A program made the translations under genes and the position numbers. From positions 775-64,774 of the forward strand of contig JANYIJ010000100.1 in NCBI GenBank assembly GCA_025362095.1: a DNA stretch of 64,000 nt. Direction: 5' to 3'. This DNA comes from Gemmatimonadota bacterium. GTDB lineage: Bacteria; Gemmatimonadota; Gemmatimonadetes; Gemmatimonadales; Gemmatimonadaceae. Below the pieces are notes generated by a model, which worked only from the letters and a program-made list of their open reading frames with translations, ran no database searches and had not been told where the DNA came from. Every line of letters begins with the position of its first letter. Within the stretch, counting starts at the first letter, position 1. Positions 10,725-58,782 of the stretch are shown here, in pieces.

Positions 10725-12791
10725 TCACGGCTGGGCGGAGGCGGTGCGGGCGTGGAAGGGGACTTCGGTGCTGACGGCCGGCCTGCTGCCGTTTATAACT
10801 CCGAGCCACACGCGCGCCGAGTCGGCGAGAATGACGATCACTGCAATCATGAAGACCGCCACGACTGCGGCGTCGAGGCGGTCGTTGAAAATCATTCTGG
10901 ACGCTTCGAACGCGTTCTTGGCGCCGGCGGGAAGTGCGCCGCCGGCCACGATAGAAGCAAGTGAGTTCGCATGCGAAAGAAATCCGAGCTTTGGATCTGC
11001 CGAGAAAATTTTCTGCGATCCGCCGGTGAGCGCGACGATCGAGAGCCAGGTGAGCGGGATGATGGTGATGAACGAGTACTTCACCTTGCCCATCCGGATG
11101 ATCACCGTCGTGCCGACGCAGAGTGCGATCGCTGCGAGAAGCTGATTCGAAATGCCGAAAATCGGCCAGAGGAGATTCACACCGCCGAGCGGATCTGTCA
11201 CGCCCTGGTAGAGGAAATATCCCCACGAACCCACGACAATCGCACTCGACAGGAGAATGGCGGGATACCAGTTCGTTCGCCCGAACGGTTTCCAGATGTG
11301 CTTGCCCAAATCCTGAAGCATGAAGCGACCCACGCGCGTACCTGCGTCGAGCGTCGTCAAAATGAAGAGCGCCTCAAACATGATCGCGAAATGATACCAG
11401 AGGGCCATCGAGCCGTCGCCGCCCAGCACCTTCGCGAAAATATTCGCCATGCCAACTGCGAGGGACGGTGCGCCGCCCGTGCGTGAGAGCAACGACGTCT
11501 CGTGCACTTTCGCTGCGAGCGCGGTCATCTCGGCGGGCGTGATAACAAATCCCCACTGCGTGATCACTTGCGATGCGCTCTCGACCGTGGTGCCGATCAA
11601 ACCCGCCGGCGCGTTGATCGCGAAGTACGTGCCCGGCGTGAGGATGCAGGCCGCAATCAGCGCGAGCGTGGCGACGAGCGACTCGCTGAGCATTGCGCCG
11701 TAGCCGATGAAGCGCGCGTCCGCTTCATTCGCAAGCAGCTTGGGCGTGGTGCCCGATGAAATCAGCGCGTGGAATCCGCTGATCGCACCGCAGGCGATCG
11801 TGATGAACACGAACGGGAAAACTTTTCCGGCGAACAGGGGGCCGGTGCCGTCGATGAACCGCGTGGTGGGCGGCATCTGCAGCGGCGGGAGCAGAATGAA
11901 GATTCCGCCCGCGAGCGCGACGACTACGCCGATCTTCACGAACGCCGAGAGATAGCCGCGCGGCGCGAGGAGCAGCCACACGGGCACGACCGATGCGAAG
12001 AACGCGTAGACCACGGTGGCGATCGCGAGCTGGATCGCCGTAAGCGTGAAGATCGGCGCGAGCGTCGGGCTGTCCGCCACCCAGCGACCCGCGAACAGCG
12101 AGATGGCGAGCAGGATCACTCCGATCGCCGTCGTCTCCAGCACACGGCCCGGACGCACGTAGCGCATCCAGAGTCCCATGATGATCGCGATCGGAATCGT
12201 GAGGCCGAGCGTGACGGTTCCCCATGGGCTCGACCGCAGCGCATTCACCACGATCAGCGCGAGGACGGCCATCAGAATGATCATGATGCCAAACGTGGCG
12301 ACGAGCGCGGTGAATCCGGCGATCGGCCCGATCTCTTCTTTCGCCATCTGGCCGAGGGATTTTCCGTCGCGGCGCGTGGAGGCGCAGAGGATCACGCAAT
12401 CTTGCACCGCACCGCCGAGCGCGACGCCGACCACGATCCAGATGAAGCCCGGCAAAAATCCAAACTGCGCGGCAAGTGTAGGACCTACGAGCGGGCCGGG
12501 GCCTGCGATCGCGGCGAAGTGCTGGCCGAAGACGATCCACCTGTTGGTGGGAACGAAGTCGCGGCCGTCGGCGAGCCGTTCTGCAGGCGTCTGCCGCGCG
12601 GGATCGAGCGCGAAGATTTTTGCGGAGATGATCTTGGAGTAAAAGCGGTATGCGATCGCGTAACTGCAGATCGCCGCGGTGAGCAGCCAGCCGGCGGAGA
12701 CATGTTCGCCTCGCTGGAGCGCAAGGAAGCCGAACGCGCCGGCGCCGAGGAGGGCGACGCAGGACCAGAGGAGAGCTTTCAGGATTCGCAT
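10725..12791 (-). CDS. cstA: Carbon starvation protein A family transporter
   Basis: 688 aa polytopic membrane protein. The CstA N-terminus is unmistakable (AICSYAIAYRFYSKIISAKIFALDPARQTPAE...DGRDFVPTNRWIVFGQHFAAIAGPGPLVGP). Confidence 0.95.
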   Translation of the reverse strand: MRILKALLWSCVALLGAGAFGFLALQRGEHVSAGWLLTAAICSYAIAYRFYSKIISAKIFALDPARQTPAERLADGRDFVPTNRWIVFGQHFAAIAGPGPLVGPTLAAQFGFLPGFIWIVVGVALGGAVQDCVILCASTRRDGKSLGQMAKEEIGPIAGFTALVATFGIMIILMAVLALIVVNALRSSPWGTVTLGLTIPIAIIMGLWMRYVRPGRVLETTAIGVILLAISLFAGRWVADSPTLAPIFTLTAIQLAIATVVYAFFASVVPVWLLLAPRGYLSAFVKIGVVVALAGGIFILLPPLQMPPTTRFIDGTGPLFAGKVFPFVFITIACGAISGFHALISSGTTPKLLANEADARFIGYGAMLSESLVATLALIAACILTPGTYFAINAPAGLIGTTVESASQVITQWGFVITPAEMTALAAKVHETSLLSRTGGAPSLAVGMANIFAKVLGGDGSMALWYHFAIMFEALFILTTLDAGTRVGRFMLQDLGKHIWKPFGRTNWYPAILLSSAIVVGSWGYFLYQGVTDPLGGVNLLWPIFGISNQLLAAIALCVGTTVIIRMGKVKYSFITIIPLTWLSIVALTGGSQKIFSADPKLGFLSHANSLASIVAGGALPAGAKNAFEASRMIFNDRLDAAVVAVFMIAVIVILADSARVWLGVINGSRPAVSTEVPFHARTASAQP

Positions 12792-12892
12792 GGGAGAGAA
12801 TGTGCGGTTCCGCTCGCCATAGCCGCAACCATATAGATAGGTGGGAAGCGATTATCTTTCGGACGCGTAAACAACCTCTTACAACGGGACAG

Positions 12893-13540
12893 ATGACCCG
12901 ATCGCTGAGGATTGCCGGGGTTTTCTCCCTCCTGCTCGCAGGGTGGGCGGGAAGCCTTCAGGCGCAGCAAAAGAAGCCCGATGCTGGGAACAAACCGCAG
13001 CCGCCGCTCTCGCCGATGGCGTCGCAGAAAGTGATGGTGCTGCCGGTGCAGCTGTTGCGGGCTGACAGCGGCGCGTGGGTGGATCAGAGCAAGTGGGAGA
13101 AGTTCCGCCGGGAGCTCGACGATTCGATCGCGTCGGCGATCGCGAACCGCGGGGTGGGGAAGACGTGGAAATACGCGTCGGACGTGGTGCGGATCGCGAA
13201 GCGGAATCCGGAGTACGTGAACGACGTGTACTCGATGGGCGTGCAGCCCATGCGGGCGGTGAAGTACAAGATCGGCGAGCCGATCCCGGATCTGCTCAAC
13301 AACAACCTGCGGCTTTTGATCGGCATTGCCGATACTCGATATGTGCTCCTGCCCGTGGAAGTCTGGTTTGCGCGGAAGGGCCCGCAGCAGATCGCGGTGC
13401 TGAAGCTGGCGATGGTGGATGGGAGAGGGGGCACGTTTGTCTGGATGGGCGAGGTGGGGACAGATCCCGCGACGTCGTTCACGCCGGCGCTGATCAGTTC
13501 ACTCGCGGCGCGCGTCGCGGATCTGGTTGTGGCGCCGTAA
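12893..13540 (+). CDS. Hypothetical exported protein
   Basis: Start set at MTRSLRIAGVFSLLLAGWAGSLQAQ (signal peptide). I recognise no domain. Codon usage is consistent with the neighbouring genes. Confidence 0.6.
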   Translation: MTRSLRIAGVFSLLLAGWAGSLQAQQKKPDAGNKPQPPLSPMASQKVMVLPVQLLRADSGAWVDQSKWEKFRRELDDSIASAIANRGVGKTWKYASDVVRIAKRNPEYVNDVYSMGVQPMRAVKYKIGEPIPDLLNNNLRLLIGIADTRYVLLPVEVWFARKGPQQIAVLKLAMVDGRGGTFVWMGEVGTDPATSFTPALISSLAARVADLVVAP

Positions 13541-13562
13541 CACCAAATATTTTCCCGAGAAC

Positions 13563-14585
13563 ATGACTCGTTCAGTCACACTGATTCCAGGCGACGGCAT
13601 CGGGCCGTCGATCACCGACGCCACCGTTCGTTTGCTCGACGCGGCGGGCGCGGATATTTCGTGGGACCGCCAGCTCGCGGGCGCGGCGGCGGTCGCGGCC
13701 GTCAACGATCCGATTCCGGAGGCGACGCTCGCGAGCATCAAAAAGAACAAGCTCGCGCTCAAGGGTCCGCTCGAGACTGCTTTGGGAAAAGGTTTTCGCT
13801 CGATCAACGTCGCGCTGCGGCAGGCGTTTGAGCTGTACGCGAATGTGCGGCCTGCGAAAACGGTGCTCACCGGGCTCAAGTTCTCCGGCGTCGATATCGT
13901 GCTCGTGCGCGAGAACACCGAAGGGCTGTATATCGGCATCGAGAACTACATCAAGATTGGCGACGATCCGATGGCGGCCGCGCAGTCGATGGCGGTGATC
14001 ACGCGGTTCGGATCGGAACGGATCATCCGATATGCGTTCGAGTACGCGAAAGCGCACGGGCGGAAGAAGGTCTCGCTCGTGCACAAGGCGAACATTTTGA
14101 AATATTCGCAGGGATTGTTCCTCGAAGTTGGACGCTCGATCGCGAAGGAATATGAAGGCGTTGTGGCGTGTGAGGAGAAGATTGTCGATGCGTGCGCGAT
14201 GGAGCTCGTGATCAAGCCGGAGCGCTTCGACGTGATCGTCACGACGAATCTGTTCGGAGATATTCTCAGCGATCTCACCTCAGGACTCGTCGGGGGGCTC
14301 GGCCTCACGCCCGGCGCGAACATCGGCAAAGACGTGGCGATCTTCGAGGCCGTGCACGGAACGGCACCCGATATCGCCGGCAAGGGAATCGCGAATCCCA
14401 CGGCAGTGATGCTCGCTGCATGCCAGCTGCTCGATCATATCGGCGACACGCCGCGCGCGTCGCGCGTGAAGAATGCGATCGAGAAAACGCTGCGCGAGCG
14501 CACCGCGCTCACCGGCGATGTCGGCGGCACCGCCACCACGGAGCAGTTCACCGACGCCGTCATCGGCAACCTCAGCGCGGCCTGA
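13563..14585 (+). CDS. Isocitrate/isopropylmalate dehydrogenase family protein (NAD-dependent isocitrate dehydrogenase-like)
   Basis: MTRSVTLIPGDGIGPSI N-terminus, FRSINVALRQ, ENTEGLY and NLFGDILSDL (family signature). About 340 aa, as for IDH3-type enzymes. Confidence 0.85.
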   Translation: MTRSVTLIPGDGIGPSITDATVRLLDAAGADISWDRQLAGAAAVAAVNDPIPEATLASIKKNKLALKGPLETALGKGFRSINVALRQAFELYANVRPAKTVLTGLKFSGVDIVLVRENTEGLYIGIENYIKIGDDPMAAAQSMAVITRFGSERIIRYAFEYAKAHGRKKVSLVHKANILKYSQGLFLEVGRSIAKEYEGVVACEEKIVDACAMELVIKPERFDVIVTTNLFGDILSDLTSGLVGGLGLTPGANIGKDVAIFEAVHGTAPDIAGKGIANPTAVMLAACQLLDHIGDTPRASRVKNAIEKTLRERTALTGDVGGTATTEQFTDAVIGNLSAA

Positions 14586-47941: not shown

Positions 47942-48991
47942 TCATCGCGTGCGACGCGCATTCCACCACATCAGAAATCCCGTAATCACTTGTGATGCCA
48001 TGACGAGCGCGGCGAGCAGCCACAGCGCCTCGCTCGGCTTCCCGAGCACGTCGCCCGTGTGCAGCGACCGCTTGAGGTTGTCGATGCGCGTGCCGAGCTG
48101 AGCCTCGCGCGTGCTGAGTCTTCCGAGCACGGCGCCTGCGTAGCGATCGACGAACACGCGGCTCCGGCCGCCCGGCGTGTGATCCTCTGGGAAACGCATC
48201 GCGACGGTCGCGGGATTCTTTTCGTTGCCGTTGGAGATGAACATGATATCTGCGCCGGGCAGCGCCGCGCGTGCGGCCGCTGCCAGCGCGTCGAATGACT
48301 GGAGCGGCGTGTTCGCAGGAGCCGCAGGTTGCCTGGGCGCGGGCGCCTGCGGGGTCGCGTCGAGCGACCGGATGGCATTCGTCAGCGCGTCGTAGTGAAT
48401 CACCAATCCGCTTCCGGTGATCACGATCAGAATCAGCGCCGCGCAGATTCCCATGGCGTGGTGAAGATCGAAGTTGACGCGTTTCCAGCTCGCGGCCGTC
48501 TGGATGCGGATGAGTTTGTCCGGCCACCAGAGAATGATTCCGGTTAGCACCAGGAACAGCGCAATCGCGGTCGCCACGCCGACGATCTCACGACCGATTT
48601 TCCCCGCGAACAGTTCGACGTGGAACACGTGCAGCCGCCGCGACAGCATGCCCTGTGACTCCAGCGGCGTTCGAGTCCCCGTGATCTCGCCCGTGTATGG
48701 ACTGACGAAAACTGTGAGGCCGCCCGCGTTCAGCGTCCACGCCCGATCCGGCACGGACGACGGTGAAATGGCTGCGATCTTTCCGCCCGGATACTTGGCC
48801 GCGACGCGCGCGACAATCGTGTCGATCGACAGCGCCGCGCCAGCGGGCATCACATGCCACTGCGATGGATGCAGTGCGCGGTCGATCGCGCCTTCGAACA
48901 CGAGCGAGGCGCCGCTCGCCGCGGTGCAGAGCAGAATGATGCCCACCACGAGCGCGGTCCAGCGATGGATGACGATCAGTGACTTTCGCAT
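47942..48991 (-). CDS. PepSY-associated TM-helix (PiuB-like) membrane protein
   Basis: N-terminal IVIHRWTALVVGIILL motif, a periplasmic PepSY-like segment, then further helices and C-terminal LHTGDVLG...ALWLLAALVMASQVITGFLMWW. The start is ATG 48991 or 49012. Confidence 0.75.
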   Translation of the reverse strand: MRKSLIVIHRWTALVVGIILLCTAASGASLVFEGAIDRALHPSQWHVMPAGAALSIDTIVARVAAKYPGGKIAAISPSSVPDRAWTLNAGGLTVFVSPYTGEITGTRTPLESQGMLSRRLHVFHVELFAGKIGREIVGVATAIALFLVLTGIILWWPDKLIRIQTAASWKRVNFDLHHAMGICAALILIVITGSGLVIHYDALTNAIRSLDATPQAPAPRQPAAPANTPLQSFDALAAAARAALPGADIMFISNGNEKNPATVAMRFPEDHTPGGRSRVFVDRYAGAVLGRLSTREAQLGTRIDNLKRSLHTGDVLGKPSEALWLLAALVMASQVITGFLMWWNARRTR

Positions 48992-49090
48992 CCGAGAAAG
49001 TTGGCCATCCACCGATTGCGGCGCGAGTGCGATGGTGCCACGGCGGTCCCGAGGAGATATTCCACATTCCGCCGAACGCGCGAGGTGTCA

Positions 49091-49897
49091 ATGCATGGAT
49101 CGAAAAAATACCGGGTCGCTCCCGGAGAATCGTTCTCGTGGAGTCGCGTCAACCCGGACGATTGCGGGACGTTCGGAAAAGAAGAGGACGCCCTCGGCCC
49201 CACAGAGGAGTACATCCGGAAGCTTGACCCGCTTCAGGAACGGCTCTACGCAGAGGGTGCGCAATCACTGCTGATCATCCTTCAGGCGCTCGACACGGGC
49301 GGCAAGGACGGCACGATCCGCCACGTCATGCGCGAGATAAATCCGCAGGGATGTCAGGTGACGTCGTTCAAAGCGCCGACACCCGATGAAATCGCGCACG
49401 ACTACCTCTGGCGCGTGCACAAGCATGTGCCCGCGAAGGGCATGGTCGGTATTTTCAACCGGTCACACTATGAGGACGTGCTGGTGACCCGCGTGCACGG
49501 CGCGCTGTCCGCAAAAAAGGCCGCGAAGCGGTTTCGGGAGATCAACGATTTTGAGCGGATGCTGTCGCACAATGGCACGACTATTGTAAAATTGTTTCTG
49601 TCCATCTCGAAGGACGAGCAGCGCAGGCGGCTGCAGGCGCGCGTGGACGATCCAAAGAAACGATGGAAATTCAGTCCGGCCGATATCACGGAGCGCAGAT
49701 ACTGGAATCGCTATCCTCAAGTGTGCGCCGAGGCGGTCGCGGCGACGAGCACGAAGCACGCGCCATGGTACGTGATTCCCGCCAACCACAAGTGGTACCG
49801 CAACTATCTCGTGGCGCGGGTTGTGGCAGAAACGCTCGAGTCGATGAACCCGCAGCTCCCCAAGGTCAAATCACCTTCTCGAATCAAGATTCGATGA
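49091..49897 (+). CDS. ppk2: Polyphosphate kinase 2 (PPK2) family phosphotransferase
   Basis: LLIILQALDTGGKDGTIRHV (Walker A-like), FNRSHYEDVLV and WYRNYL are typical of single-domain PPK2. Start set at MHGSKKY. Confidence 0.85.
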   Translation: MHGSKKYRVAPGESFSWSRVNPDDCGTFGKEEDALGPTEEYIRKLDPLQERLYAEGAQSLLIILQALDTGGKDGTIRHVMREINPQGCQVTSFKAPTPDEIAHDYLWRVHKHVPAKGMVGIFNRSHYEDVLVTRVHGALSAKKAAKRFREINDFERMLSHNGTTIVKLFLSISKDEQRRRLQARVDDPKKRWKFSPADITERRYWNRYPQVCAEAVAATSTKHAPWYVIPANHKWYRNYLVARVVAETLESMNPQLPKVKSPSRIKIR

Positions 49898-50487
49898 AAG
49901 AGACCAGCATCGACGACATCGCGATCGATGAGAACAATCCGCTGCTCGCGGACGTAATCGAGCGGAACATTCGCACGGTGAGCCGCTTGCGGCGGCAGGC
50001 CGCACGCGACCGGAGCTTGCAGGACAGAATCGCCGACGTCATCACGGCGTTCTCCGGCCGGACGGTGTTCGTATACTTGCACGTTGTCTGGTTTCTGTTC
50101 TGGATTTTGCTGAACGAGGGACGGTTTGGATTCAAACCGTTCGATCCGTTTCCATACGGACTGCTTACGATGGTCGTCTCGCTCGAGGCGATTTTTCTCT
50201 CGGCGTTCGTGCTCATCAGCCAGAGCAGACTTGCGGAGGCGGCCGAGCGGCGCGCCGACCTCGACCTGCACATCGGCCTGCTCACGGAGCACGAACTCAC
50301 GACCGCGCTGCGAATGCTGCACGCGATCCACCACAAGCTGGGGATCGCGGTTGATGACGATCACGAACTTGCCGATCTGGAGATGGAAACGAAGCCCGAG
50401 GATGTACTCGCCGAAATCGAGCGCGTGGAGAAGCGCGCGTCGGTGCGCATGGCGGCCTCCGAACTCAATCTTTCGGAGGACCCGTGA
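49894..50487 (+). CDS. DUF1003 family membrane protein
   Basis: Family core FDPFPYGLLTMVVSLEAIFLSAFVLISQSRLAEAAERRADLD. Its ATG overlaps the ppk2 stop (ATGA). Confidence 0.75.
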   Translation: MKETSIDDIAIDENNPLLADVIERNIRTVSRLRRQAARDRSLQDRIADVITAFSGRTVFVYLHVVWFLFWILLNEGRFGFKPFDPFPYGLLTMVVSLEAIFLSAFVLISQSRLAEAAERRADLDLHIGLLTEHELTTALRMLHAIHHKLGIAVDDDHELADLEMETKPEDVLAEIERVEKRASVRMAASELNLSEDP

Positions 50488-51193: not shown

Positions 51194-52045
51194 ATGATGG
51201 ACAACGAGATCACATCCACGGCCACGCGCGCGATCAGCGAACAATACGACGCGTTTCAGGCGTCGCTCGAAGCGCTCGCCTCACTCGGAGTTCAGCAGAA
51301 ATACCTGAACTACGGTTACCAGACGTCGAACGAAATTGGATACGAGCAGACGCAGGAACAGCTCTGTCTCGAAGTCTTCGGCGCCGCAGAGATCCAGCCG
51401 GCTGATGTGCTCGTGGACGTGGGATTCGGCAGCGGAGAGCAGTCGTTGCTGCTCTCGTCGCATTTCGAGTTCGCGCAGTACACCGGCTTCAATATTTCTG
51501 CCAATCAGGTTCGTTACGCTACGCATCGTGCCGCCGACCGCCACCTCTCGCACAAGCTCGAGTACCGGCACGGCGAGGCGGAGGTGCTTCCGGGCATCGC
51601 TGACAACTCGATCGACAAGCTGATGGCCGTGGAGTGCGCGTTCTACTTCGACCGTCCGCGCTTTTATGCGCGCGCCGCGGAGGTGCTCAAGCCTGGCGGA
51701 CGCGCGGTGCTCGCGGACATCACCCTCGCAAACTGGCTCGGATTCATGGGCCGTATGCGCGAGGATTTCAAGCGTGTTGGAACGCGCGGCGGAAACCAGC
51801 GCGAGTGGGAGCGCCATCTCGTGACGCGATCGATTCGTGACATCAACCCAGAGACGCGTCCGGGCGTGCAGCGCACAGTGTTCCGGATTCTCAAGCTCGC
51901 ATCGCTCGCGCGAATCACCGGCGCGCAGCGCCGGGAGTGGTGGAAGATGGCGTTCTACACCCAGCTCGTGGCGATCGGCCAGCTGCTCGGTATGGTGCGC
52001 TATGAGCTCATCGTTCTGGAGAAGAAGGCGGCCGACAGCGCGTGA
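51194..52045 (+). CDS. Class I SAM-dependent methyltransferase
   Basis: Motif I VLVDVGFGSGEQS, plus a post-I acidic residue and motif II/III spacing. Substrate is unknown. Confidence 0.7.
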   Translation: MMDNEITSTATRAISEQYDAFQASLEALASLGVQQKYLNYGYQTSNEIGYEQTQEQLCLEVFGAAEIQPADVLVDVGFGSGEQSLLLSSHFEFAQYTGFNISANQVRYATHRAADRHLSHKLEYRHGEAEVLPGIADNSIDKLMAVECAFYFDRPRFYARAAEVLKPGGRAVLADITLANWLGFMGRMREDFKRVGTRGGNQREWERHLVTRSIRDINPETRPGVQRTVFRILKLASLARITGAQRREWWKMAFYTQLVAIGQLLGMVRYELIVLEKKAADSA

Positions 52046-54258
52046 GCGAGCCAACCGTCTCCCTGATCGATTCGTTCGCGCCCGAGTACCGGGTGGAGCG
52101 CGAACTGGGGCGGGGTGCAACCGCCAGAGTCTATCTCGCGGAAGACATCAAGCACCAGCGGCGCGTGGCGATCAAGGTGCTTCGCGAGGAAATCGCTGAG
52201 AGCCTCGGCACCGAGCGTTTCATGCAGGAGATCGTCGTGGCGGCGGGTCTCTCGCATCCTCATATCGTGCCGTTGCTCGATTCAGGCAAGCGCGCGGGCG
52301 CGCTCTACTATGTCATGCCGGCGATCGAGGGTGAGACGCTGCGCGAGCGGCTGACGCGTGAGAACCCAATGCCGATCGCCGACGCGCTGCGTATTACGAG
52401 CCAGGTCGCCGACGCACTCGCATTCTCACATTCGCGCGGCATCATCCATCGCGACGTGAAGCCCGAGAACATACTGATCGCGAGATCCGGCCACGCACTC
52501 GTGCTCGATTTCGGCATCGCGCGCGCGATTCGCGACGCCGAGTCGGACCGCATGACGCAGACCGGATTTTCCCTTGGCACGCCCGCGTACATGAGCCCCG
52601 AGCAGGCGTCCGGCGAACGCGAGGTCGATGCGCGCACCGACCAGTACTCGCTCGCGATGATGTGCTTTGAAATGCTCACCGGAACGACGCCGTTTCACGC
52701 GCCGTCGCTGGAGCTGAGCCTGCGGCGCCGCTTCACCGAACGCGCGCCAAGCGTGCGCAGCCTCCGGCCGGAAGTAGGGAAGGAGCAGGACGATGCGCTG
52801 CAACGCGCGATGTCCACGGCGCCCGAAGATCGCTACGCGACGATCGCCGAATTCGTGCCCATGCTGCTCCGTGCGCGCAATGAGGTGCTCACTACGGGCC
52901 AGGTCGCGAAGCGCCGGCCGGTGGTGGCGGTGCTCCCGCTCTCGAATATCAGCTCCGATCCGGAGAACCAGTTCCTCGCCGACGGAATCGCCGAGGAAAT
53001 TCTTGGCGCTCTCGCGCAGCTGAAGGCGCTGGCCGTGGTCGGCAGATCGTCATCGTTCGCGTTTCGCGGTGATAACGTGGACGTGAAGAAGATCGCCGAC
53101 CAGCTGCACGCGACGCACGTGCTCTCCGGCAGCATGCGCCGATCCGGATCTAAACTGCGCGTCTCGGCTCAGCTTGTGACGACGGCAGACGGCCAGGTCG
53201 TGTGGTCCGAGCGTTTCGATCGCGAACTGGTCGACGTGTTCGCGATTCAGGATGAGATCGCGGCGGCCGTGTCGTCAGCGCTGCGGCTCGTGCTCGTGCC
53301 GGCCACGACGCGGCCTTCCCACACGCCGAATCTCAAAGCGCACGAACTGTTCCTGCGCGCACGCGCGCTCTGGCTGCTCGGCCCCGCGCGATACGCGGAA
53401 GCGAAAGAGCTGATCGATCTGGGCATGAAGATGGATCCCGAGTCGGTGGCGGGGCAGTCGTTGCTCGCCGGATATCTCGCGATCACCGGCATTTACGGAA
53501 TGGCCAGACCGTCGGATGTGTTCCCAAAGGCAAAGGCTGTTGCGAACCAGGTGCTGGAGCAGGGGCCGGATGCGTTCGCGTTGTATGTGCTCGGGCTGGC
53601 CGCGTTCCTTTACGACTTCGACCCGCGGCAGGCGCGGCGGCTGTTTGAGGAATCGCTGCAGCTCTCGGGCCGCGCGCGCGCGATGTACGCGACGCTGCTC
53701 GTGGTTTCAGGCGAGCAGCCGCGCGCGTTCGAGGAGATGGCGGCCGCTCTGACAGAGGATCCATTCGACGCCAATACGCGGCAGCAGCACGTGGATCTCT
53801 TCTGGTACGCGCACCGGATTGACGAGGCGCTCGCGGAAGCGCGGCGGCTGCAGGAGCTGTTTCCCGAGTCGAGCACGGTGCATTTCCACCTCGCGAAGAT
53901 TCTGCTGCACACTGGCGAGACAGAAGAGGCGCTGCAGTGGGCGCAGCGGTCAGCGGCCGCGCGCCATCCGAGCGGCACGGCGTCGCTCGTCGAGATTCTT
54001 GCGAAGCTCGGAAAGACTCAGGAGGCGCGAGCCGTTCTCGATGCCGCGCTGGCGCACGCCCAGACGGCCTGGGTCTCGCCGGCAAATCTCGCGCGCATGC
54101 ACTTTGCACTTGGCGATAAAGATCTTGCGTTCGCGCAGATGGAACGCGCGGTGACCGAGCGCGATGCGCTCGTCGCTGGCTTCAAGGACGACCCGATGTA
54201 CGATCCGATGCGCGCGGATCCGCGTTTCGAGTCGTACGCGAAGAAAGTTCAGTATTAG
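52042..54258 (+). CDS. Ser/Thr protein kinase with central TolB-N-like/CsgG-like module and C-terminal TPR-like helical repeats
   Basis: Hanks motifs are present: RVAIKVL, HRDVKPENILI, DFGIAR and GTPAYMSPEQ. The PVVAVLPLSNISSDPENQFLADGIAEEI module is followed by helical repeats. The start overlaps the methyltransferase stop (GTGA). Confidence 0.9.
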   Translation: MSEPTVSLIDSFAPEYRVERELGRGATARVYLAEDIKHQRRVAIKVLREEIAESLGTERFMQEIVVAAGLSHPHIVPLLDSGKRAGALYYVMPAIEGETLRERLTRENPMPIADALRITSQVADALAFSHSRGIIHRDVKPENILIARSGHALVLDFGIARAIRDAESDRMTQTGFSLGTPAYMSPEQASGEREVDARTDQYSLAMMCFEMLTGTTPFHAPSLELSLRRRFTERAPSVRSLRPEVGKEQDDALQRAMSTAPEDRYATIAEFVPMLLRARNEVLTTGQVAKRRPVVAVLPLSNISSDPENQFLADGIAEEILGALAQLKALAVVGRSSSFAFRGDNVDVKKIADQLHATHVLSGSMRRSGSKLRVSAQLVTTADGQVVWSERFDRELVDVFAIQDEIAAAVSSALRLVLVPATTRPSHTPNLKAHELFLRARALWLLGPARYAEAKELIDLGMKMDPESVAGQSLLAGYLAITGIYGMARPSDVFPKAKAVANQVLEQGPDAFALYVLGLAAFLYDFDPRQARRLFEESLQLSGRARAMYATLLVVSGEQPRAFEEMAAALTEDPFDANTRQQHVDLFWYAHRIDEALAEARRLQELFPESSTVHFHLAKILLHTGETEEALQWAQRSAAARHPSGTASLVEILAKLGKTQEARAVLDAALAHAQTAWVSPANLARMHFALGDKDLAFAQMERAVTERDALVAGFKDDPMYDPMRADPRFESYAKKVQY

Positions 54259-54267
54259 CTGCGACCG

Positions 54268-57200
54268 TCAGTATTTGGGGACGACCGGAGCCTCCCTGAT
54301 GTTCGGCCAGCTCGAGAGCAGCGATCCCTCGCGATGCCCTTTCGCGGTGGCTGGTTCCCCCGGCGCTCCTGGGTTCGCGACAAGCTGGTCGACAATCCAC
54401 GATCCGAGCGCTCGATAGCTCTCGAACTGTGACTCGCTGAAGAACTGATCGGCGCTTGACTCCTGCGGAAACGTCGGCGAGAGGTTCGCGTAGTTGATCA
54501 CGTCGCGCGGTTCGATCGTTCCATACACGGCAGGCTTCAGGTACACGAGCACGCCGTCGTAGTCGTCGGGCGTGCAGCCCGGTGGCATGTCGATCGCCGA
54601 GTAGCGGATCTTTGCCGTCGCCCAGTACGCGCCTTTGGTGCCGTCACCGCTCCTGATGTTCACCGGCTGATCGAACTCAATTGGAATTCCAAAATCGATG
54701 CGAATCTTGCGCACGGCATTGCCGAGATCTTCGAATGTGTAGTCGGGATCCGCGCCAGCGTCGCTGAGCACGATGAACCGGCAGCGGCGGAAGACCATTT
54801 CGTAGAGCGCCAGATTTTCGAAGTGGCCGCCGTCGGAGAGGTAGACGTACTCACTGCGATCGCTCGTCAGTCCGAACATTTCCGAAAGAATCGGCGTGAG
54901 CCGGGATTTCGGATTGGCGAGCTTCCACGTGTTGGCGCCCGGCGCTCCGGGATTTCCGAGCCACCAGCCTAGCCGGGCATTGAAGAACGTCATGAGAAAT
55001 GCGCCGAGCGCGGTGGTGCCGGAACCGTCGTTCGGACTCGCCGCAGCTCCCGAGATCGCCATGGCCGTGCCGAGGCTCACGCCGCTCGCGCCGCCGTAAC
55101 CGGGCTTCGCCGGCTGGAGGCGAGTGGTGGGTTTTGGGTGCGGCTCCATTCGACGATATCCCGTGAACGCCGACCCTGCATGCAACGGCGTCAGCGTCAT
55201 CGACTCTCCCTTTCTCTGCTGCCAGGCGAGATTGCGGCCAGCGTTGAGATTGAGCGTGACGTTCAGCACGTGCATCGGCGGCACTTCCTCCGAGCGATTA
55301 CCGTTTTCTCCAGCCTCTGCGGCGTTGACTCTCGCCGGCCAGAGATCGCGCATCGGCAGATCGTCCTGGCTGTCGAATCCCGTGAACGGATTCGGATTGC
55401 GCGCCGAAGATGCCCGAGTCGTTCCGAGGAAGGCGCGGACCGTGCGCGAGCGCCACATCGCGTGAAGCGAGAACGTGTTGGTGTTGACTCTCGTGCTGAA
55501 CAGCACACCCGCCAGAATCATGATCACCATCAGCACCAGCACGCCCAGTGCCAGGGCGTTTTCGGAGGGCTGATGATGCGTCTTCGCGGTGTTGACGCTA
55601 TCAAGAACGCGCTGGACTGAATCGGCGCCCCTCGATCTCCGTTCAATGTCGGTCTTGAGTGCCGTGTCGACATCCAGCGCGTGCTCGACTGCTCGAAAAA
55701 GCAGCTCCGGGGGCACCACTTTCTGCTCGCTGACGGACTCAAAGTGGTTGTTGCGCGCGAGCGTAAACTTGCGGAAGCTCTGCAAGACTCCGTTAAGTGA
55801 ATCAGATTCGTCGAGGCTGTATCCCTCTTTCGCTCCCGCGCGGCGGATCAGGCGCGTCGCCATGCTGTCGCGTGAGAGCGTCGCAGCGGTCAGCGCGTGC
55901 GACGCGGCCACAATCGTCGAATCCGCGACTCTCGAGGAATCCCTTTCCGTCGCAGACACCGGAACTCTCGGAATGTCGGCAGCAAGCTTCGCTTGCAGCT
56001 CGGTGCGCGCGACCGACGCTTGCTCTGACTTCGCATACTCGACTTCACGAAGCATTGGAACTGACGTCGAATCTTCCGTCGGTGGATTGCAGTGCAGCTG
56101 CCGAGAGAGAGAGTCGCTGCGGCAAACGAGGTTGAGCGTCCCTTCGTTCGCGGCGGCCAGTCCGATGATGATGCAGAACACCACGGCCGGCATCGCGAGA
56201 GAAAGCGCGGAGCTCGCGATCCTGGCGCCAATCGACGGCTTTCCGGTTGTCGGAGTCGTCGACTGCTTGCTCAACACGATCGTCAGCCAGCTCGAGACGC
56301 CACCCACGCCAATGACGGTCAGCTTCTGCCAGAGTCCCGCGATGAGCTGCGGACCGAAGAGCACCACCGCGCTCGAGACCGACCACACGATCGCGGCGAC
56401 GATCACCCATGCGTTCGCGCGCGCGGCCCATTCGCGCTCCGCGTCGCTCGATTCGTTGCTGGTGAGTCCTGTGTAGAGTTGATTCGACCCGACGCTTCCG
56501 AGCAAGAGCGCGCTCGTTCCGAACGTCACGTACATCTCGCGCGCGAAGCCGTCGAGCACGAAGAACGCCACGAAGTATCCGGCCCAGCCGCAGAAAATGA
56601 CGATGGCCGCGCGGCCCAGCGCATGCCAGCGTGAGTGGCGTCCTCTCCGTCGCAGTCCCATGACAAACACTATGAGCATCGCGACGACACCCATTACGAT
56701 CAGCGCGCCCATGAACTTGCTCATGATCTCATAGCTCGGACGAAGCGTGTCCCAGTGATCCGCGTGGTAGAACGCGAATGCCGTTACTGCCGAACCGATG
56801 ATGCGTGGAATGAAAAAGAGATAGAGGAATTGCTGCGGTGTAGCGGAATCACGGCGACCGCTTCCGAGGTCACCCGTCCCTGTGCGCACCCGCTCCACGA
56901 ATCCGCTGGAGATGGAGAGCAGCACAAAGCCGAGCATCAAACCGGCGATTGCCACTCTCGCGGGATGGCTCGGCAACTCGTGTTCCGCCGCGAGGGCCGC
57001 AAGCAGGAGTCTGGGAATCATCACGATGCCGGCGAGCAGTGGCAGCAGCACCAGCCAGTTCAGCAGCAGATTTCTAATGACGGTCGCGATCACCGTCCAG
57101 CTGTCGATCGACATCGCGCTTGCGTTTGGCGTGAGCCAATGGCTGAACGCGCGCAGTCCCTGGAGCGGCTCGGGTTCCGGCTGGAGTTTTTCCCGTCCGG

Positions 57201-58050
57201 GTTGACGGAGCGCTTCGTGCACGGCTTTCGCGCCATCGCGGCGCATCCACCCGGTGAGCCACCCGCCCGAAAGGCCGCCGCCGGAAACAGTCGAGAGATA
57301 GTCGAACTTTCCGAGCAGCCCATGTTTCGCGAGTCCCTGCATCACGCCGAGCGCGAATGTGGAGCTGCGGATTCCACCACCCGAGAGACAGAGCGCCGAT
57401 GTATCTCGCAGTCGTGCTTTGTCGAACACGGTCGCGAGGCGCCGGTCGCGCATGAGCGCGATGAGATGCGGGAACGCGGCCTCGATCAGCTCTCGATTTG
57501 CTCGCCGGACAAATTGCTTTTGTGCGTCGTCTGCGGTCACGCCTGGCAGCGGTTCGCCGAGCGCGTCGATGCTGCCGGCCTCCACGAACGACCGAAACGC
57601 CTGGACATCCATGAGGCGCATGCCGAGCAGCGCGTTGAAGCGCGCGGTGAGCGCCGCCGCGAACGCGTTCGCGGCAGGTCCAGCTTTCCGCTCAGCAGCC
57701 TTTTCGTAGGAGTCGAGCGCGGCGAGAAGATCGGCGTCCGAAAGCAGGAAGCGTCCGACCGCATCGCGAGGAGTCGATTCGTCGTCGAGCTTGACGCGTG
57801 GAGCGCCGGTATGCGGAAGGGAGAGATCCTCCGCGCCGAGCGATGCGCGGAGGTCGCGCGCCATCGCGGGAATATCGACGAACTGCGGCGGATCGAACTC
57901 CACCGGTACGGTCTCCATCGCGCCGGTGATGTCTTCGCCGTGCATTGCCTCATGCTCGTCCGCGAGCGCGCGCTCGACGGGCAGCACTCCTTCGGCCTTC
58001 TTCCAATCGATTGCCCGATTCGACGGATTGTTGCGGCTGAACAGACTCAT
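54268..58050 (-). CDS. 1260-aa polytopic membrane protein with a split patatin/cPLA2-like lipid-hydrolase signature
   Basis: Start set at ATG 58050, with GGGAG 8 nt upstream. Oxyanion-hole motif LSGGGIRSS and nucleophile-elbow-like STVSGGG (Ser codon 57283-57285) lie near residue 270 of the track ORF. The catalytic-Asp motif YLSDGGHFENL (Asp codon 54832-54834) lies 817 residues later. About 10-11 hydrophobic helices and a roughly 190-aa soluble segment lie between them. Confidence 0.8.
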   Translation of the reverse strand: MSLFSRNNPSNRAIDWKKAEGVLPVERALADEHEAMHGEDITGAMETVPVEFDPPQFVDIPAMARDLRASLGAEDLSLPHTGAPRVKLDDESTPRDAVGRFLLSDADLLAALDSYEKAAERKAGPAANAFAAALTARFNALLGMRLMDVQAFRSFVEAGSIDALGEPLPGVTADDAQKQFVRRANRELIEAAFPHLIALMRDRRLATVFDKARLRDTSALCLSGGGIRSSTFALGVMQGLAKHGLLGKFDYLSTVSGGGLSGGWLTGWMRRDGAKAVHEALRQPGREKLQPEPEPLQGLRAFSHWLTPNASAMSIDSWTVIATVIRNLLLNWLVLLPLLAGIVMIPRLLLAALAAEHELPSHPARVAIAGLMLGFVLLSISSGFVERVRTGTGDLGSGRRDSATPQQFLYLFFIPRIIGSAVTAFAFYHADHWDTLRPSYEIMSKFMGALIVMGVVAMLIVFVMGLRRRGRHSRWHALGRAAIVIFCGWAGYFVAFFVLDGFAREMYVTFGTSALLLGSVGSNQLYTGLTSNESSDAEREWAARANAWVIVAAIVWSVSSAVVLFGPQLIAGLWQKLTVIGVGGVSSWLTIVLSKQSTTPTTGKPSIGARIASSALSLAMPAVVFCIIIGLAAANEGTLNLVCRSDSLSRQLHCNPPTEDSTSVPMLREVEYAKSEQASVARTELQAKLAADIPRVPVSATERDSSRVADSTIVAASHALTAATLSRDSMATRLIRRAGAKEGYSLDESDSLNGVLQSFRKFTLARNNHFESVSEQKVVPPELLFRAVEHALDVDTALKTDIERRSRGADSVQRVLDSVNTAKTHHQPSENALALGVLVLMVIMILAGVLFSTRVNTNTFSLHAMWRSRTVRAFLGTTRASSARNPNPFTGFDSQDDLPMRDLWPARVNAAEAGENGNRSEEVPPMHVLNVTLNLNAGRNLAWQQRKGESMTLTPLHAGSAFTGYRRMEPHPKPTTRLQPAKPGYGGASGVSLGTAMAISGAAASPNDGSGTTALGAFLMTFFNARLGWWLGNPGAPGANTWKLANPKSRLTPILSEMFGLTSDRSEYVYLSDGGHFENLALYEMVFRRCRFIVLSDAGADPDYTFEDLGNAVRKIRIDFGIPIEFDQPVNIRSGDGTKGAYWATAKIRYSAIDMPPGCTPDDYDGVLVYLKPAVYGTIEPRDVINYANLSPTFPQESSADQFFSESQFESYRALGSWIVDQLVANPGAPGEPATAKGHREGSLLSSWPNIREAPVVPKY

Positions 58051-58146
58051 CTCGCTACTCCCTGAGGCGGGGGACTTCTGCGGCGACGGCAAACGTCGAG
58101 GCAAAGGCTCGCGGAGTCAAGCGATACGTCTTGATTTATGCCACGA

Positions 58147-58782
58147 TCACGCGGCTGCGTTCGGCGAGATCAAAAAGCGGCAGCTCGGCTGACCGCTGCG
58201 GTCGCAGCGCTCCTTCACCGTTCCACCCGTGACGTCGTGAAGGAGCTGCTCGAGGAGCGCGCACGACGCCGGGCACTCGGTCACGGCGTCGGACAGAATG
58301 CACCCGTGTCCGCGGATCTCGTAGTGTTTCCCGGACTGCACGAGATCGGCATCCGCGCCAAGGTCGGTGAGAAACGATGCGCTCGCCCTCACGCGATCGT
58401 CAAACGTGGCGCGCGCGGGCAGAGACGAAGCGAGCCGATGTCCCGCGTGCCGCAGCAACGATTCCACCTGCTTCGGCGTCATACGCTCGCGTAGCTCGGC
58501 CAGCAGCGCAGTCAGCACCGGCGCGTACGCGCTGGAGAAAAGCGCAGAAGAATCAGGCGCTATTCCATATAGCGTCGCCGGCTTGCCCACAGTGCCGTCG
58601 CGGCGCACCCCCGCCGACCAGACGACCTTTTCGCGTCCGAGCACAGCCAGCTGGGCGCGAACCGCATTGCCGGTGAGGCCCAGGGACTCGGCGAGTTCCT
58701 CGACGCTGCGCTCGCCGCGCCTCAACAGCGCGACTATTCGACTTCGGGTCGTTTTGCCGAACTGCCGCTGCCACCAGGCCAT
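58147..58782 (-). CDS. ArsR/winged-helix transcriptional regulator with Cys-rich C-terminal domain
   Basis: Start set at MAWWQRQF, preceded by GAGGGAGGA. HTH region TRSRIVALLRRGERSVEELAESLGLTGNAVRAQLAVL. The C-terminal domain has 5 Cys (HGCILSDAVTECPASCALL...ERC...PSC). Confidence 0.75.
   Translation of the reverse strand: MAWWQRQFGKTTRSRIVALLRRGERSVEELAESLGLTGNAVRAQLAVLGREKVVWSAGVRRDGTVGKPATLYGIAPDSSALFSSAYAPVLTALLAELRERMTPKQVESLLRHAGHRLASSLPARATFDDRVRASASFLTDLGADADLVQSGKHYEIRGHGCILSDAVTECPASCALLEQLLHDVTGGTVKERCDRSGQPSCRFLISPNAAA

Follow-up and report, generated by a model that had tools for sequence, protein, structure and literature searches.

A patatin/cPLA2-type lipase whose catalytic domain is predicted to be cut in two by a membrane block, from a Gemmatimonadota bacterium

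Lipases of the patatin and cytosolic phospholipase A2 (cPLA2) type are known as soluble enzymes that need to be recruited to the membrane, and a central question about them is how a lipid is drawn out of the bilayer. We analyzed a window of 64,000 nucleotides from a bacterium of the Gemmatimonadaceae (Gemmatimonadota; GenBank assembly GCA_025362095.1, contig JANYIJ010000100.1, positions 775 to 64,774 of the forward strand), and in it the gene at 54268..58050 on the minus strand. According to its sequence and to structure models, the product of this gene, hereafter the lipase, is a large inner-membrane protein with a catalytic domain of the patatin/cPLA2 type that about ten transmembrane (TM) helices split into two parts.

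The lipase and cPLA2 (1CJY, 5IZ5; PF01735) both have a Ser–Asp dyad without His, an SGGGxR motif followed about 30 residues on by xxSGx, an Asp within D-G-G-x-x-x-N, and a large insertion between the nucleophile and the Asp. For cPLA2alpha, Ser228, a cap made of residues 370–548 and the opening of a lid at the membrane have been described (PMC9862071). Unlike the lipase, which has no C2 domain and about ten TM helices inside its catalytic domain, cPLA2 is soluble and recruited through a Ca2+-dependent C2 domain. The Ser–Asp gap is 817 residues in the lipase as against 321 in cPLA2alpha, the sequence identity is about 13%, and the lipase lies below the reach of PF01735, which does not match it. 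Canonical patatins (potato patatin, ExoU, VipD, Rickettsia Pat1/Pat2, CBASS CapV; PF01734) resemble the lipase in the DGG block with the Asp and in the Gly-rich loop and elbow region that the Pfam profile matches, with TVSGG as the elbow of the lipase, but their dyad lies in one contiguous soluble domain, whereas the lipase has its 817-residue gap and aligns to only 69 of the 191 positions of the Pfam profile. The dyad of R. typhi Pat1, for instance, is made of Ser51 and Asp199 (PMC3688537). Neither in the lipase nor in 206 relatives do the Ser and the Asp stand about 150–320 residues apart in a single soluble alpha/beta domain. PNPLA6/NTE (with an N-terminal TM helix), PlpD of P. aeruginosa (with an Omp85 barrel) and PlaF (a phospholipase A1 with a single TM helix) also have a lipolytic domain that is held at a membrane and acts on glycerolipids. 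With PlaF, there is already a case of a phospholipase A in the inner membrane of a bacterium that serves lipid remodelling. In these three, the catalytic domain is intact and the anchor is added to it, whereas that of the lipase interrupts the domain; furthermore, Pfam detected no POTRA, beta-barrel or cNMP domain in the lipase. In PlpD, a type Vd protein with a signal peptide, POTRA and an Omp85 barrel of 16 strands come after the patatin domain; apart from the patatin type of catalytic domain, the lipase has none of these.

The gene occupies a single uninterrupted open reading frame (ORF) spanning 54268..58104 on the minus strand, with neither a stop nor a change of frame over 3.8 kb. Its likely start is the ATG at 58050, which has the sequence GGGAGTAGCGAG upstream, with a GGGAG-type ribosome-binding site, and the product is identical to the database protein P0001 (1260 residues). 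Residues are numbered here from this ATG. An earlier note on this DNA, made from the letters and their reading frames, had counted from 58104, so that its S274 and D1091 are the Ser256 and Asp1073 of the present text. The GC content of the gene is 0.626, versus 0.633 for the window. The parts of the lipase are the following.

54268..58050, minus strand: complete coding sequence of the lipase (1260 residues and stop), from the ORF list and translation
57436..58050, minus strand: predicted cytoplasmic N-terminal region, residues 1–205, defined by alignment and of variable length within the family
57940–57987, minus strand: conserved N-terminal motif LPVERALADEHEAMHG, residues 22–37, from an alignment of 30 homologues in which E32 is invariant
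57115..57435, minus strand: catalytic half 1, residues 206–312, from the Pfam Patatin match, the AlphaFold2 (AF2) model, the family profile and alignments
57361..57387, minus strand: block I, LSGGGIRSS, residues 222–230, with S223–S229 invariant in 30 and 89 sequences
57274..57294, minus strand: block II, STVSGGG, residues 253–259, invariant, with the predicted nucleophile Ser256 (codon 57283–57285)
56119..57114, minus strand: membrane block, residues 313–644, about nine predicted TM helices, from hydropathy, AF2 helices and conservation
56089–56124, minus strand: pair of cysteines C643...C654 (CxxxxxxC), directly after TM9 and before the insert, kept in many, not all, members
55561..56118, minus strand: soluble insert of four long helices, residues 645–830, predicted to be periplasmic, from AF2 and alignment
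55480..55560, minus strand: last TM helix, residues 831–857, predicted to bring the chain back to the cytoplasm (hydropathy peak 3.05; AF2 helix at model residues 645–665)
54346..55479, minus strand: catalytic half 2, residues 858–1235, from Foldseek, a search with the C-terminal part and invariant columns
54811..54837, minus strand: block IV, SDGGHFENL, residues 1072–1080, with the predicted catalytic Asp1073 (codon 54832–54834)

Translation and motif positions thus reproduced the single ORF with Ser and Asp motifs 817 residues apart that the earlier note had reported. Hydropathy and AF2 also agreed with its account of the interval, i.e., about ten hydrophobic helices, a charged helical segment of about 190 residues and one more helix.

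Half 1 is composed, in this order, of a strand, the GGGIR segment (predicted oxyanion hole and Arg228), a helix, a strand, the TVS256GG elbow, helices and a conserved PEPxPxxxLR sequence. The Pfam Patatin profile (PF01734) matched it with a score of 30.6 bits, the gathering threshold being 27.7. The match covers residues 220–289 and only positions 1–69 of the profile, ending where the TM block begins; it spans the elbow. The same profile recognized 26 of 27 family members from which the membrane part had been spliced out (best E-value 6e-11). Block I (S223-GGG-I-R228-S229) conforms to the oxyanion-hole pattern G-G-x-[RK]. Every member has Thr in place of the first Gly of the elbow, T254-V-S256-G-G, whose Ser and second Gly are invariant. 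Neither LSGGGIRS nor YLSTVSGGG varies in the alignments of 30 and of 89 members, and with the Patatin score above threshold this invariance indicates that the motifs are not there by chance.

Half 2 starts with a putative interfacial helix, TNTFSLHAMWRSRTVRAFLG (residues 858–876), followed by FTGFD and LAWQQRK motifs, block III (SGAAASP, residues 1000–1006), FNARLGWWLGNPG, block IV and a helix with the sequence DQFFSESQFESYRALG. In block IV, D1073, G1074, G1075, H1076, F1077, N1079 and L1080 are invariant, in agreement with the catalytic-Asp pattern D-G-[AG]. The segments of half 2 that are invariant or nearly so are SGAAASP, FNxRLGWWLGNPG, SDGGHFxNL, LGNAxRKxRxDxG and DQxxxExQFESYRxLG. The first of these, S1000-G-A-A-A-S-P1006, resembles, and would be the counterpart of, block III of patatins, a conserved segment of small residues and Ser...Pro between blocks II and IV. 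No second nucleophile elbow was present in half 2 and no second DGG in half 1 in the alignments of 30 and 89 sequences. The catalytic blocks are thus distributed without redundancy, I and II being found only in half 1, III and IV only in half 2, and all of them are invariant. At the level of sequence, the C-terminal 400 or so residues had no match in Pfam, NCBIfam or the PDB.

An AF2 model built from an 89-sequence alignment and covering residues 190–1260 had a mean predicted local distance difference test score (pLDDT) of 86.5 and a predicted template modelling score (pTM) of 0.78, with a pLDDT of 90–96 in half 1, a range that a fragment of two strands would be unlikely to reach if it were unpacked, so that half 1 appears to be packed in the full chain. 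When the full model was compared with the PDB by Foldseek, the top match was human cPLA2alpha (1CJY; probability 1.00, E 6e-3), followed by cPLA2delta (5IZ5; probability 0.97–0.99). Modelled alone (residues 858–1260), half 2 had a pLDDT of 78.4, and its only specific match was again cPLA2delta (5IZ5_A; probability 0.96, E 1.3e-3, 458 columns), all others staying below 0.1. Without half 1 and the TM block, the pLDDT of half 2 dropped by 10–30 points in the segments surrounding the active site, namely the interfacial helix, the first strands, WWLGNPG, the DGG strand and the helix after it, and that of the distal C-terminal subdomain was unchanged.

Sequence searches of the PDB with the protein or with the 89-sequence profile returned noise and faint matches to VipD, in half 1 only. 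A profile of spliced N- and C-terminal sequences gave weak matches of half 1 to VipD, to ExoU and to residues 185–258 of cPLA2alpha (the Gly-rich loop and the Ser228 region); the GS linker that joined the spliced pieces contaminated this search. PF01735 (PLA2_B) weakly matched 5 of 27 relatives (best E-value 0.011) and not the window protein itself. No match of half 2 to patatin, ExoU or VipD was found by sequence or by structure, and among viral structures, Foldseek returned just short half-1 matches to patatins of giant viruses (probability at most 0.63). Since half 1 aligns to cPLA2alpha and half 2 is structurally cPLA2-like, the lipase is collinear with the cPLA2 catalytic domain. The membrane block is inserted after the nucleophile helix, at the position in the chain that the cap and lid occupy in cPLA2.

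The non-redundant and invariant catalytic blocks, the confidence scores of the models and the even number of TM helices (see below) indirectly support the assembly of the two halves into one cPLA2-like fold, which we consider very probable. Motifs, invariance, AF2 and Foldseek support the initial reading of this gene as encoding the two halves of a patatin/cPLA2-type Ser–Asp hydrolase separated by a polytopic membrane domain, as well as the remark that the motif context is cPLA2-like, cPLA2 alpha and delta being the only high-probability Foldseek matches.

Nine strong hydrophobic segments were detected by hydropathy within residues 318–857. In the AF2 model, there are about nine helices in residues 315–644, four long soluble helices in residues 663–824 (model residues 474–635) and a final TM helix at residues 834–854. 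The segment between the membrane block and the final helix is charged and all-helical. It is limited to the window clade and to a clade of 1390-residue proteins of Gemmatimonadaceae and is absent, in the alignment, from members of 890–1150 residues. Conserved polar residues are found at helix ends predicted to be cytoplasmic, namely R326/N327 (TM1) and D536-AEREW-AAR544 before TM7. Loops rich in Arg and Lys are present at residues 391–404, 467–474 (RRRGRHSR, which marks the cytoplasmic side) and 595–606, and no signal peptide or N-terminal hydrophobic signal was found in the sequence or its hydropathy.

The topology was derived from the number of TM helices and the positive-inside rule. The number is even (about ten), the Arg/Lys-rich loops are on the side of the catalytic halves, a signal peptide is lacking and the Cys pair is on the opposite side; both halves should therefore face the cytoplasm. 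A cytoplasmic location of both catalytic halves, with the insert in the periplasm, is thus strongly supported as a prediction. C643 and C654 would fit a periplasmic disulfide and are consistent with this topology.

No fold relative of the membrane block was found in the PDB at a Foldseek probability above 0.2; its matches to membrane proteins (Nramp, MprF, ABC transporters) had probabilities of at most 0.2 and a root-mean-square deviation (rmsd) of at least 30 Å. Comparison of TM1–5 with TM6–9 by HHalign gave no internal repeat (probability <2%). The insertion had initially been called channel-like, a description that did not hold, as neither a transporter or channel fold (all Foldseek probabilities <0.2) nor a repeat was found.

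Among 5.8 billion proteins searched with the lipase, there were more than 1574 matches. Full-length relatives, the nearest of which come from metagenome-assembled genomes (MAGs) of Gemmatimonadota, are 57–64% identical over 99–100% of the query. The 1390-residue clade, from Gemmatimonadaceae MAGs, is about 40% identical, and Spirosoma, Fibrella, Pyrinomonadaceae and Desulforhabdus have forms of 890–1150 residues. Of 247 retrieved proteins, 206 carried the Ser motif together with the Asp motif, with a spacing of 598–1085 residues (median 699) and, in nearly all of these 206, 10–12 hydrophobic segments in between. As it is kept in 206 members, the split is a family-defining architecture and not a fusion artefact.

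Scanning of one genome per GTDB species indicated that at least 591 species from about ten phyla carry the family. The hosts belong to the Gemmatimonadota, Acidobacteriota, Bacteroidota, Nitrospirota, Verrucomicrobiota, Planctomycetota, Methylomirabilota, Chloroflexota, Desulfobacterota and Alpha-, Beta- and Gammaproteobacteria. When the C-terminal 368 residues were taken as the query, exhaustive searching by HMMER yielded 11462 representatives at 50% identity (E≤1e-3), 5218 of them at E≤1e-30. The family was present in 42 plasmid records, most of which are megaplasmids or chromids from rhizobia, Methylobacterium, Cupriavidus and Azospirillum, and tblastn against 50,697 phage records found no copy.

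A compact and distant subfamily exists on megaplasmids of rhizobia, Methylobacterium and Cupriavidus, in hosts that can be cultured. Its example on plasmid pRlX2 of Rhizobium ruizarguesonis (locus L089, 4663–7176) has 837 residues, with Ser122 and Asp642 separated by 520 residues; the split is retained, and the membrane block is shorter, different and without the DAEREW motif. In another 37 retrieved proteins (among P0121–P0246; for example P0205, 402 residues, P0198, 450 residues, and P0130, 487 residues) only the C-terminal half is present. Their lengths vary continuously, for which reason we consider them as probably truncated metagenomic gene calls.

Database entries label the members as 'patatin-like phospholipase family protein' or 'hypothetical'. 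We found no curated model for the whole protein in NCBIfam or PADLOC, no solved relative in the PDB and, in a literature search that included the accession numbers of cultured homologues, no description of the family. These searches bear out the initial impression that the architecture could not be assigned to a described family. By mechanism and fold, we place the lipase in the patatin/cPLA2 superfamily. What sets it apart is the interruption of this known catalytic fold by a membrane block, an undescribed architecture by which a very large uncharacterized family is defined.

The reading that we favour, and hold to be reasonably probable, is that the lipase is a membrane-integrated acyl-hydrolase or transacylase acting on phospholipids of the inner leaflet for lipid remodelling. 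The catalytic domain would be assembled from two pieces of sequence about 550–800 residues apart and packed against the inner leaflet, half 1 bringing the oxyanion hole (G224–G226), a phosphate-binding Arg228 and the nucleophile Ser256, and half 2 bringing blocks III and IV with Asp1073. The membrane block would take the place of the cap and lid of cPLA2, keeping the active site permanently at the bilayer, and might serve as the route by which a phospholipid or lysophospholipid passes from the inner leaflet to Ser256. Candidates for lining such a path are R326/N327, D536/R539/E540/W541/R544 and the interfacial helix 858–876. In the window clade and its sister clade, the periplasmic four-helix insert could couple the activity to the state of the envelope or to signals from it. 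The reaction would likely be a deacylation (as a phospholipase A or lysophospholipase) or a transacylation of membrane glycerolipids, in their remodelling or turnover. The physiological role may be a housekeeping or stress-responsive one in soil bacteria rather than anti-phage suicide.

Several points weigh against this interpretation. The likeness to cPLA2 detected by Foldseek is geometrically weak (TM-scores of 0.2–0.37, rmsd of 10–16 Å, E 1e-3 to 6e-3), and the nucleophile elbow T-V-S-G-G departs from the canonical G-x-S-x-G. The single-fold claim is based on collinearity, conservation, topology and confidence scores, and not on the distance between Ser256 and Asp1073. The family being known from sequences and models, a hydrolase, a transacylase and any substrate would fit it alike. 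The role of the TM block as a substrate path is pure inference, Foldseek having found no recognizable fold relatives, and the context of the gene does not point to lipid metabolism.

We considered the possibility that the protein is a lipid transporter or scramblase, or an MprF-like enzyme with two functions, the TM block moving a lipid that the lipase-like domain would process or re-acylate, as in the clearance of lysophospholipids (cf. LplT–Aas). The combination of a polytopic TM block with a cytoplasmic lipid-modifying domain does recall MprF, in which a large TM block is coupled to a cytoplasmic domain acting on membrane lipids. MprF and Nramp-type proteins are also among the Foldseek matches to the TM region, and charged residues are conserved at the TM ends. 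Yet these matches are non-significant (probability 0.12–0.18, and 0.12–0.13 for MprF; rmsd≥30 Å), and the catalytic parts differ, MprF having a C-terminal synthase and the lipase a split Ser–Asp hydrolase. Transporters typically contain an internal repeat, which was not found in the TM block, and Pfam matches to transporter families did not rise above noise. Furthermore, the rhizobial subfamily keeps the split lipase with a TM block that is shorter, different and without the REW motif, and this difference suggests a role of the TM part as anchor or cap, not as conserved machinery for transport. We consider a transporter function to be unlikely.

The surroundings of the gene bear on another possibility. 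The two genes that adjoin the lipase gene in the window are the following.

58147..58782, minus strand: ArsR-type winged-helix regulator with a Cys-rich C-terminus, about 211 residues from Met72 of its ORF, from PF01022 (HTH_5) and translation
52042..54258, plus strand: Ser/Thr protein kinase–TPR gene, convergent with the lipase gene and ending 10 bp from its stop, from its Pkinase and TPR domains

The Cys-rich ArsR-like regulator preceding the lipase on the same strand had already been pointed out and was recovered here, with its PF01022 domain and its Cys-rich C-terminus. The several Cys in the C-terminal domain of the regulator (HGCILSD..ECPASC..C..C) suggest that it senses metals or the redox state. 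Of the relatives, the closest one (L001/L002) alone keeps the regulator beside the lipase gene, in contrast to L003, L004 and the other phyla, and it may be a local regulator rather than a family-wide partner. Genes for a DUF4142 protein and for M24 and M28 peptidases are found further upstream of the lipase gene, and genes for a methyltransferase and a carbonic anhydrase beyond the kinase gene.

The gene order is kept in L001 (64% identity; kinase at 11818–14034), and the kinase is also found in L003 (11795–13891) and in the 40%-identity clade (L004, 12533–14803); it adjoins the lipase gene in L020, L043, L047 and L056 as well, across several phyla. This adjacency is modestly enriched, a kinase being the immediate neighbour in 8 of 150 cases, compared with 5 of 696 other nearby ORFs (odds ratio 7.8, p=5e-4, uncorrected for shared ancestry), and four of the eight adjacencies form one syntenic group. 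cPLA2alpha is under phosphorylation control. As kinases are abundant in these phyla, a regulatory link between kinase and lipase is only a lead. Clustering of the ORFs over 89 loci gave no neighbour family in more than 11 loci, the commonest being the kinase, and a Pfam census of 133 immediate neighbours gave no family in more than three, so that a conserved operon partner did not emerge. At the loci of Spirosoma, Desulforhabdus and a Bacteroidota MAG, the genes around the lipase are unrelated ones. A few kb from the lipase gene, the window also encodes a PepSY-associated TM protein (47942–49012, minus strand) and a DUF1003 membrane protein (49663–50487, plus strand); PepSY/PepSY_TM genes are also near the homologue in L003.

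Anti-phage systems often use patatin-like lipases as effectors. The lipase might accordingly be a stand-alone suicide effector, of the abortive-infection kind or triggered by stress, whose membrane and periplasmic parts would sense phage or envelope damage and whose lipase would attack the inner membrane of its own cell. Its permanent location in the membrane, a variable N-terminal region and a periplasmic insert that could both be sensors, and its occurrence as a single gene without partners are all compatible with such a function. Yet no PADLOC model matched the protein (0 families), and the 133 immediate neighbours matched only generic models (kinase, ATPase-like and similar), at most three each, with no recurring defence family. 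No defence island was seen at the loci examined, in line with the remark in the earlier note that other defence-type genes were lacking nearby. CapV-type effectors of CBASS differ in these respects, the neighbours of the lipase gene being a peptidase, a kinase, a methyltransferase and a carbonic anhydrase, with no sensor or cyclase. Furthermore, chromosomal synteny is stable across 40–64% identity in Gemmatimonadota, the GC content is host-like, and the spread is broad and roughly species-wide, with the strong purifying conservation typical of core functions; phage copies are absent from the 50,697 records. The abortive-infection or defence idea that had been put forward for this gene is thus not supported, and we regard it as quite improbable. 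The lipid-remodelling alternative proposed along with it fits better.

The weakest alternative, an artefactual ORF (a frameshift or assembly fusion of a patatin fragment, a membrane gene and an unrelated C-terminal gene) or a decayed pseudoenzyme, could explain why Pfam sees just 69 of 191 patatin positions and why the C-terminal 400 residues match nothing by sequence, but is negligible given the same collinear architecture in more than 200 proteins from independent assemblies, complete genomes included, the invariant catalytic Gly, Arg, Ser and Asp, the cPLA2-like structure of the C-terminal part and 3.8 kb without stop or frame change. The fusion by frameshift or assembly that had been raised as a caveat from the start is ruled out, being effectively refuted by these homologues. 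We also rejected a secreted toxin (no signal peptide, catalytic halves predicted to be cytoplasmic) and a PlpD-like autotransporter (no POTRA/Omp85 match, an all-helical membrane part and no N-terminal hydrophobic signal).

The N-terminal region had been described as some 220 residues without a recognizable motif. This stood in so far as residues 1–215 matched nothing in scans of Pfam, NCBIfam and PADLOC, C2 domain included, but a family-wide motif is present at residues 22–37. Its consensus, LPLxxVLxEExxxxHG, is found in nearly all members, even in those devoid of the remainder of the region; the N-terminal region is absent, in the alignment, from the shortest members, P0109 and P0120. The motif could be an autoinhibitory or docking helix.

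With this catalytic machinery built around a polytopic membrane domain, the family would be a natural, 'permanently docked' version of enzymes of the patatin/cPLA2 type, in which interfacial catalysis has an architecture that is new. For dominant soil phyla, it would further represent an unstudied and probably important enzyme of membrane-lipid turnover; Acidobacteriota, Gemmatimonadota, Nitrospira, Verrucomicrobiota, Cytophagales and rhizobia commonly have it. The family may be a prokaryotic relative of cPLA2. We propose, tentatively, that it represents a new class of intramembrane-coupled lipases, in which a polytopic membrane domain replaces the cap and lid of cPLA2 and serves as a built-in lateral gate that feeds lipids of the inner leaflet to a cytoplasmic Ser–Asp site (some clades using it also as a switch that senses the periplasm), and that it is the closest prokaryotic relative of cPLA2, which would bear on the origin of the latter. 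As homologues occur in culturable and tractable bacteria (Rhizobium, Sinorhizobium, Methylobacterium, Azospirillum, Cupriavidus and Spirosoma), this hypothesis is directly testable.

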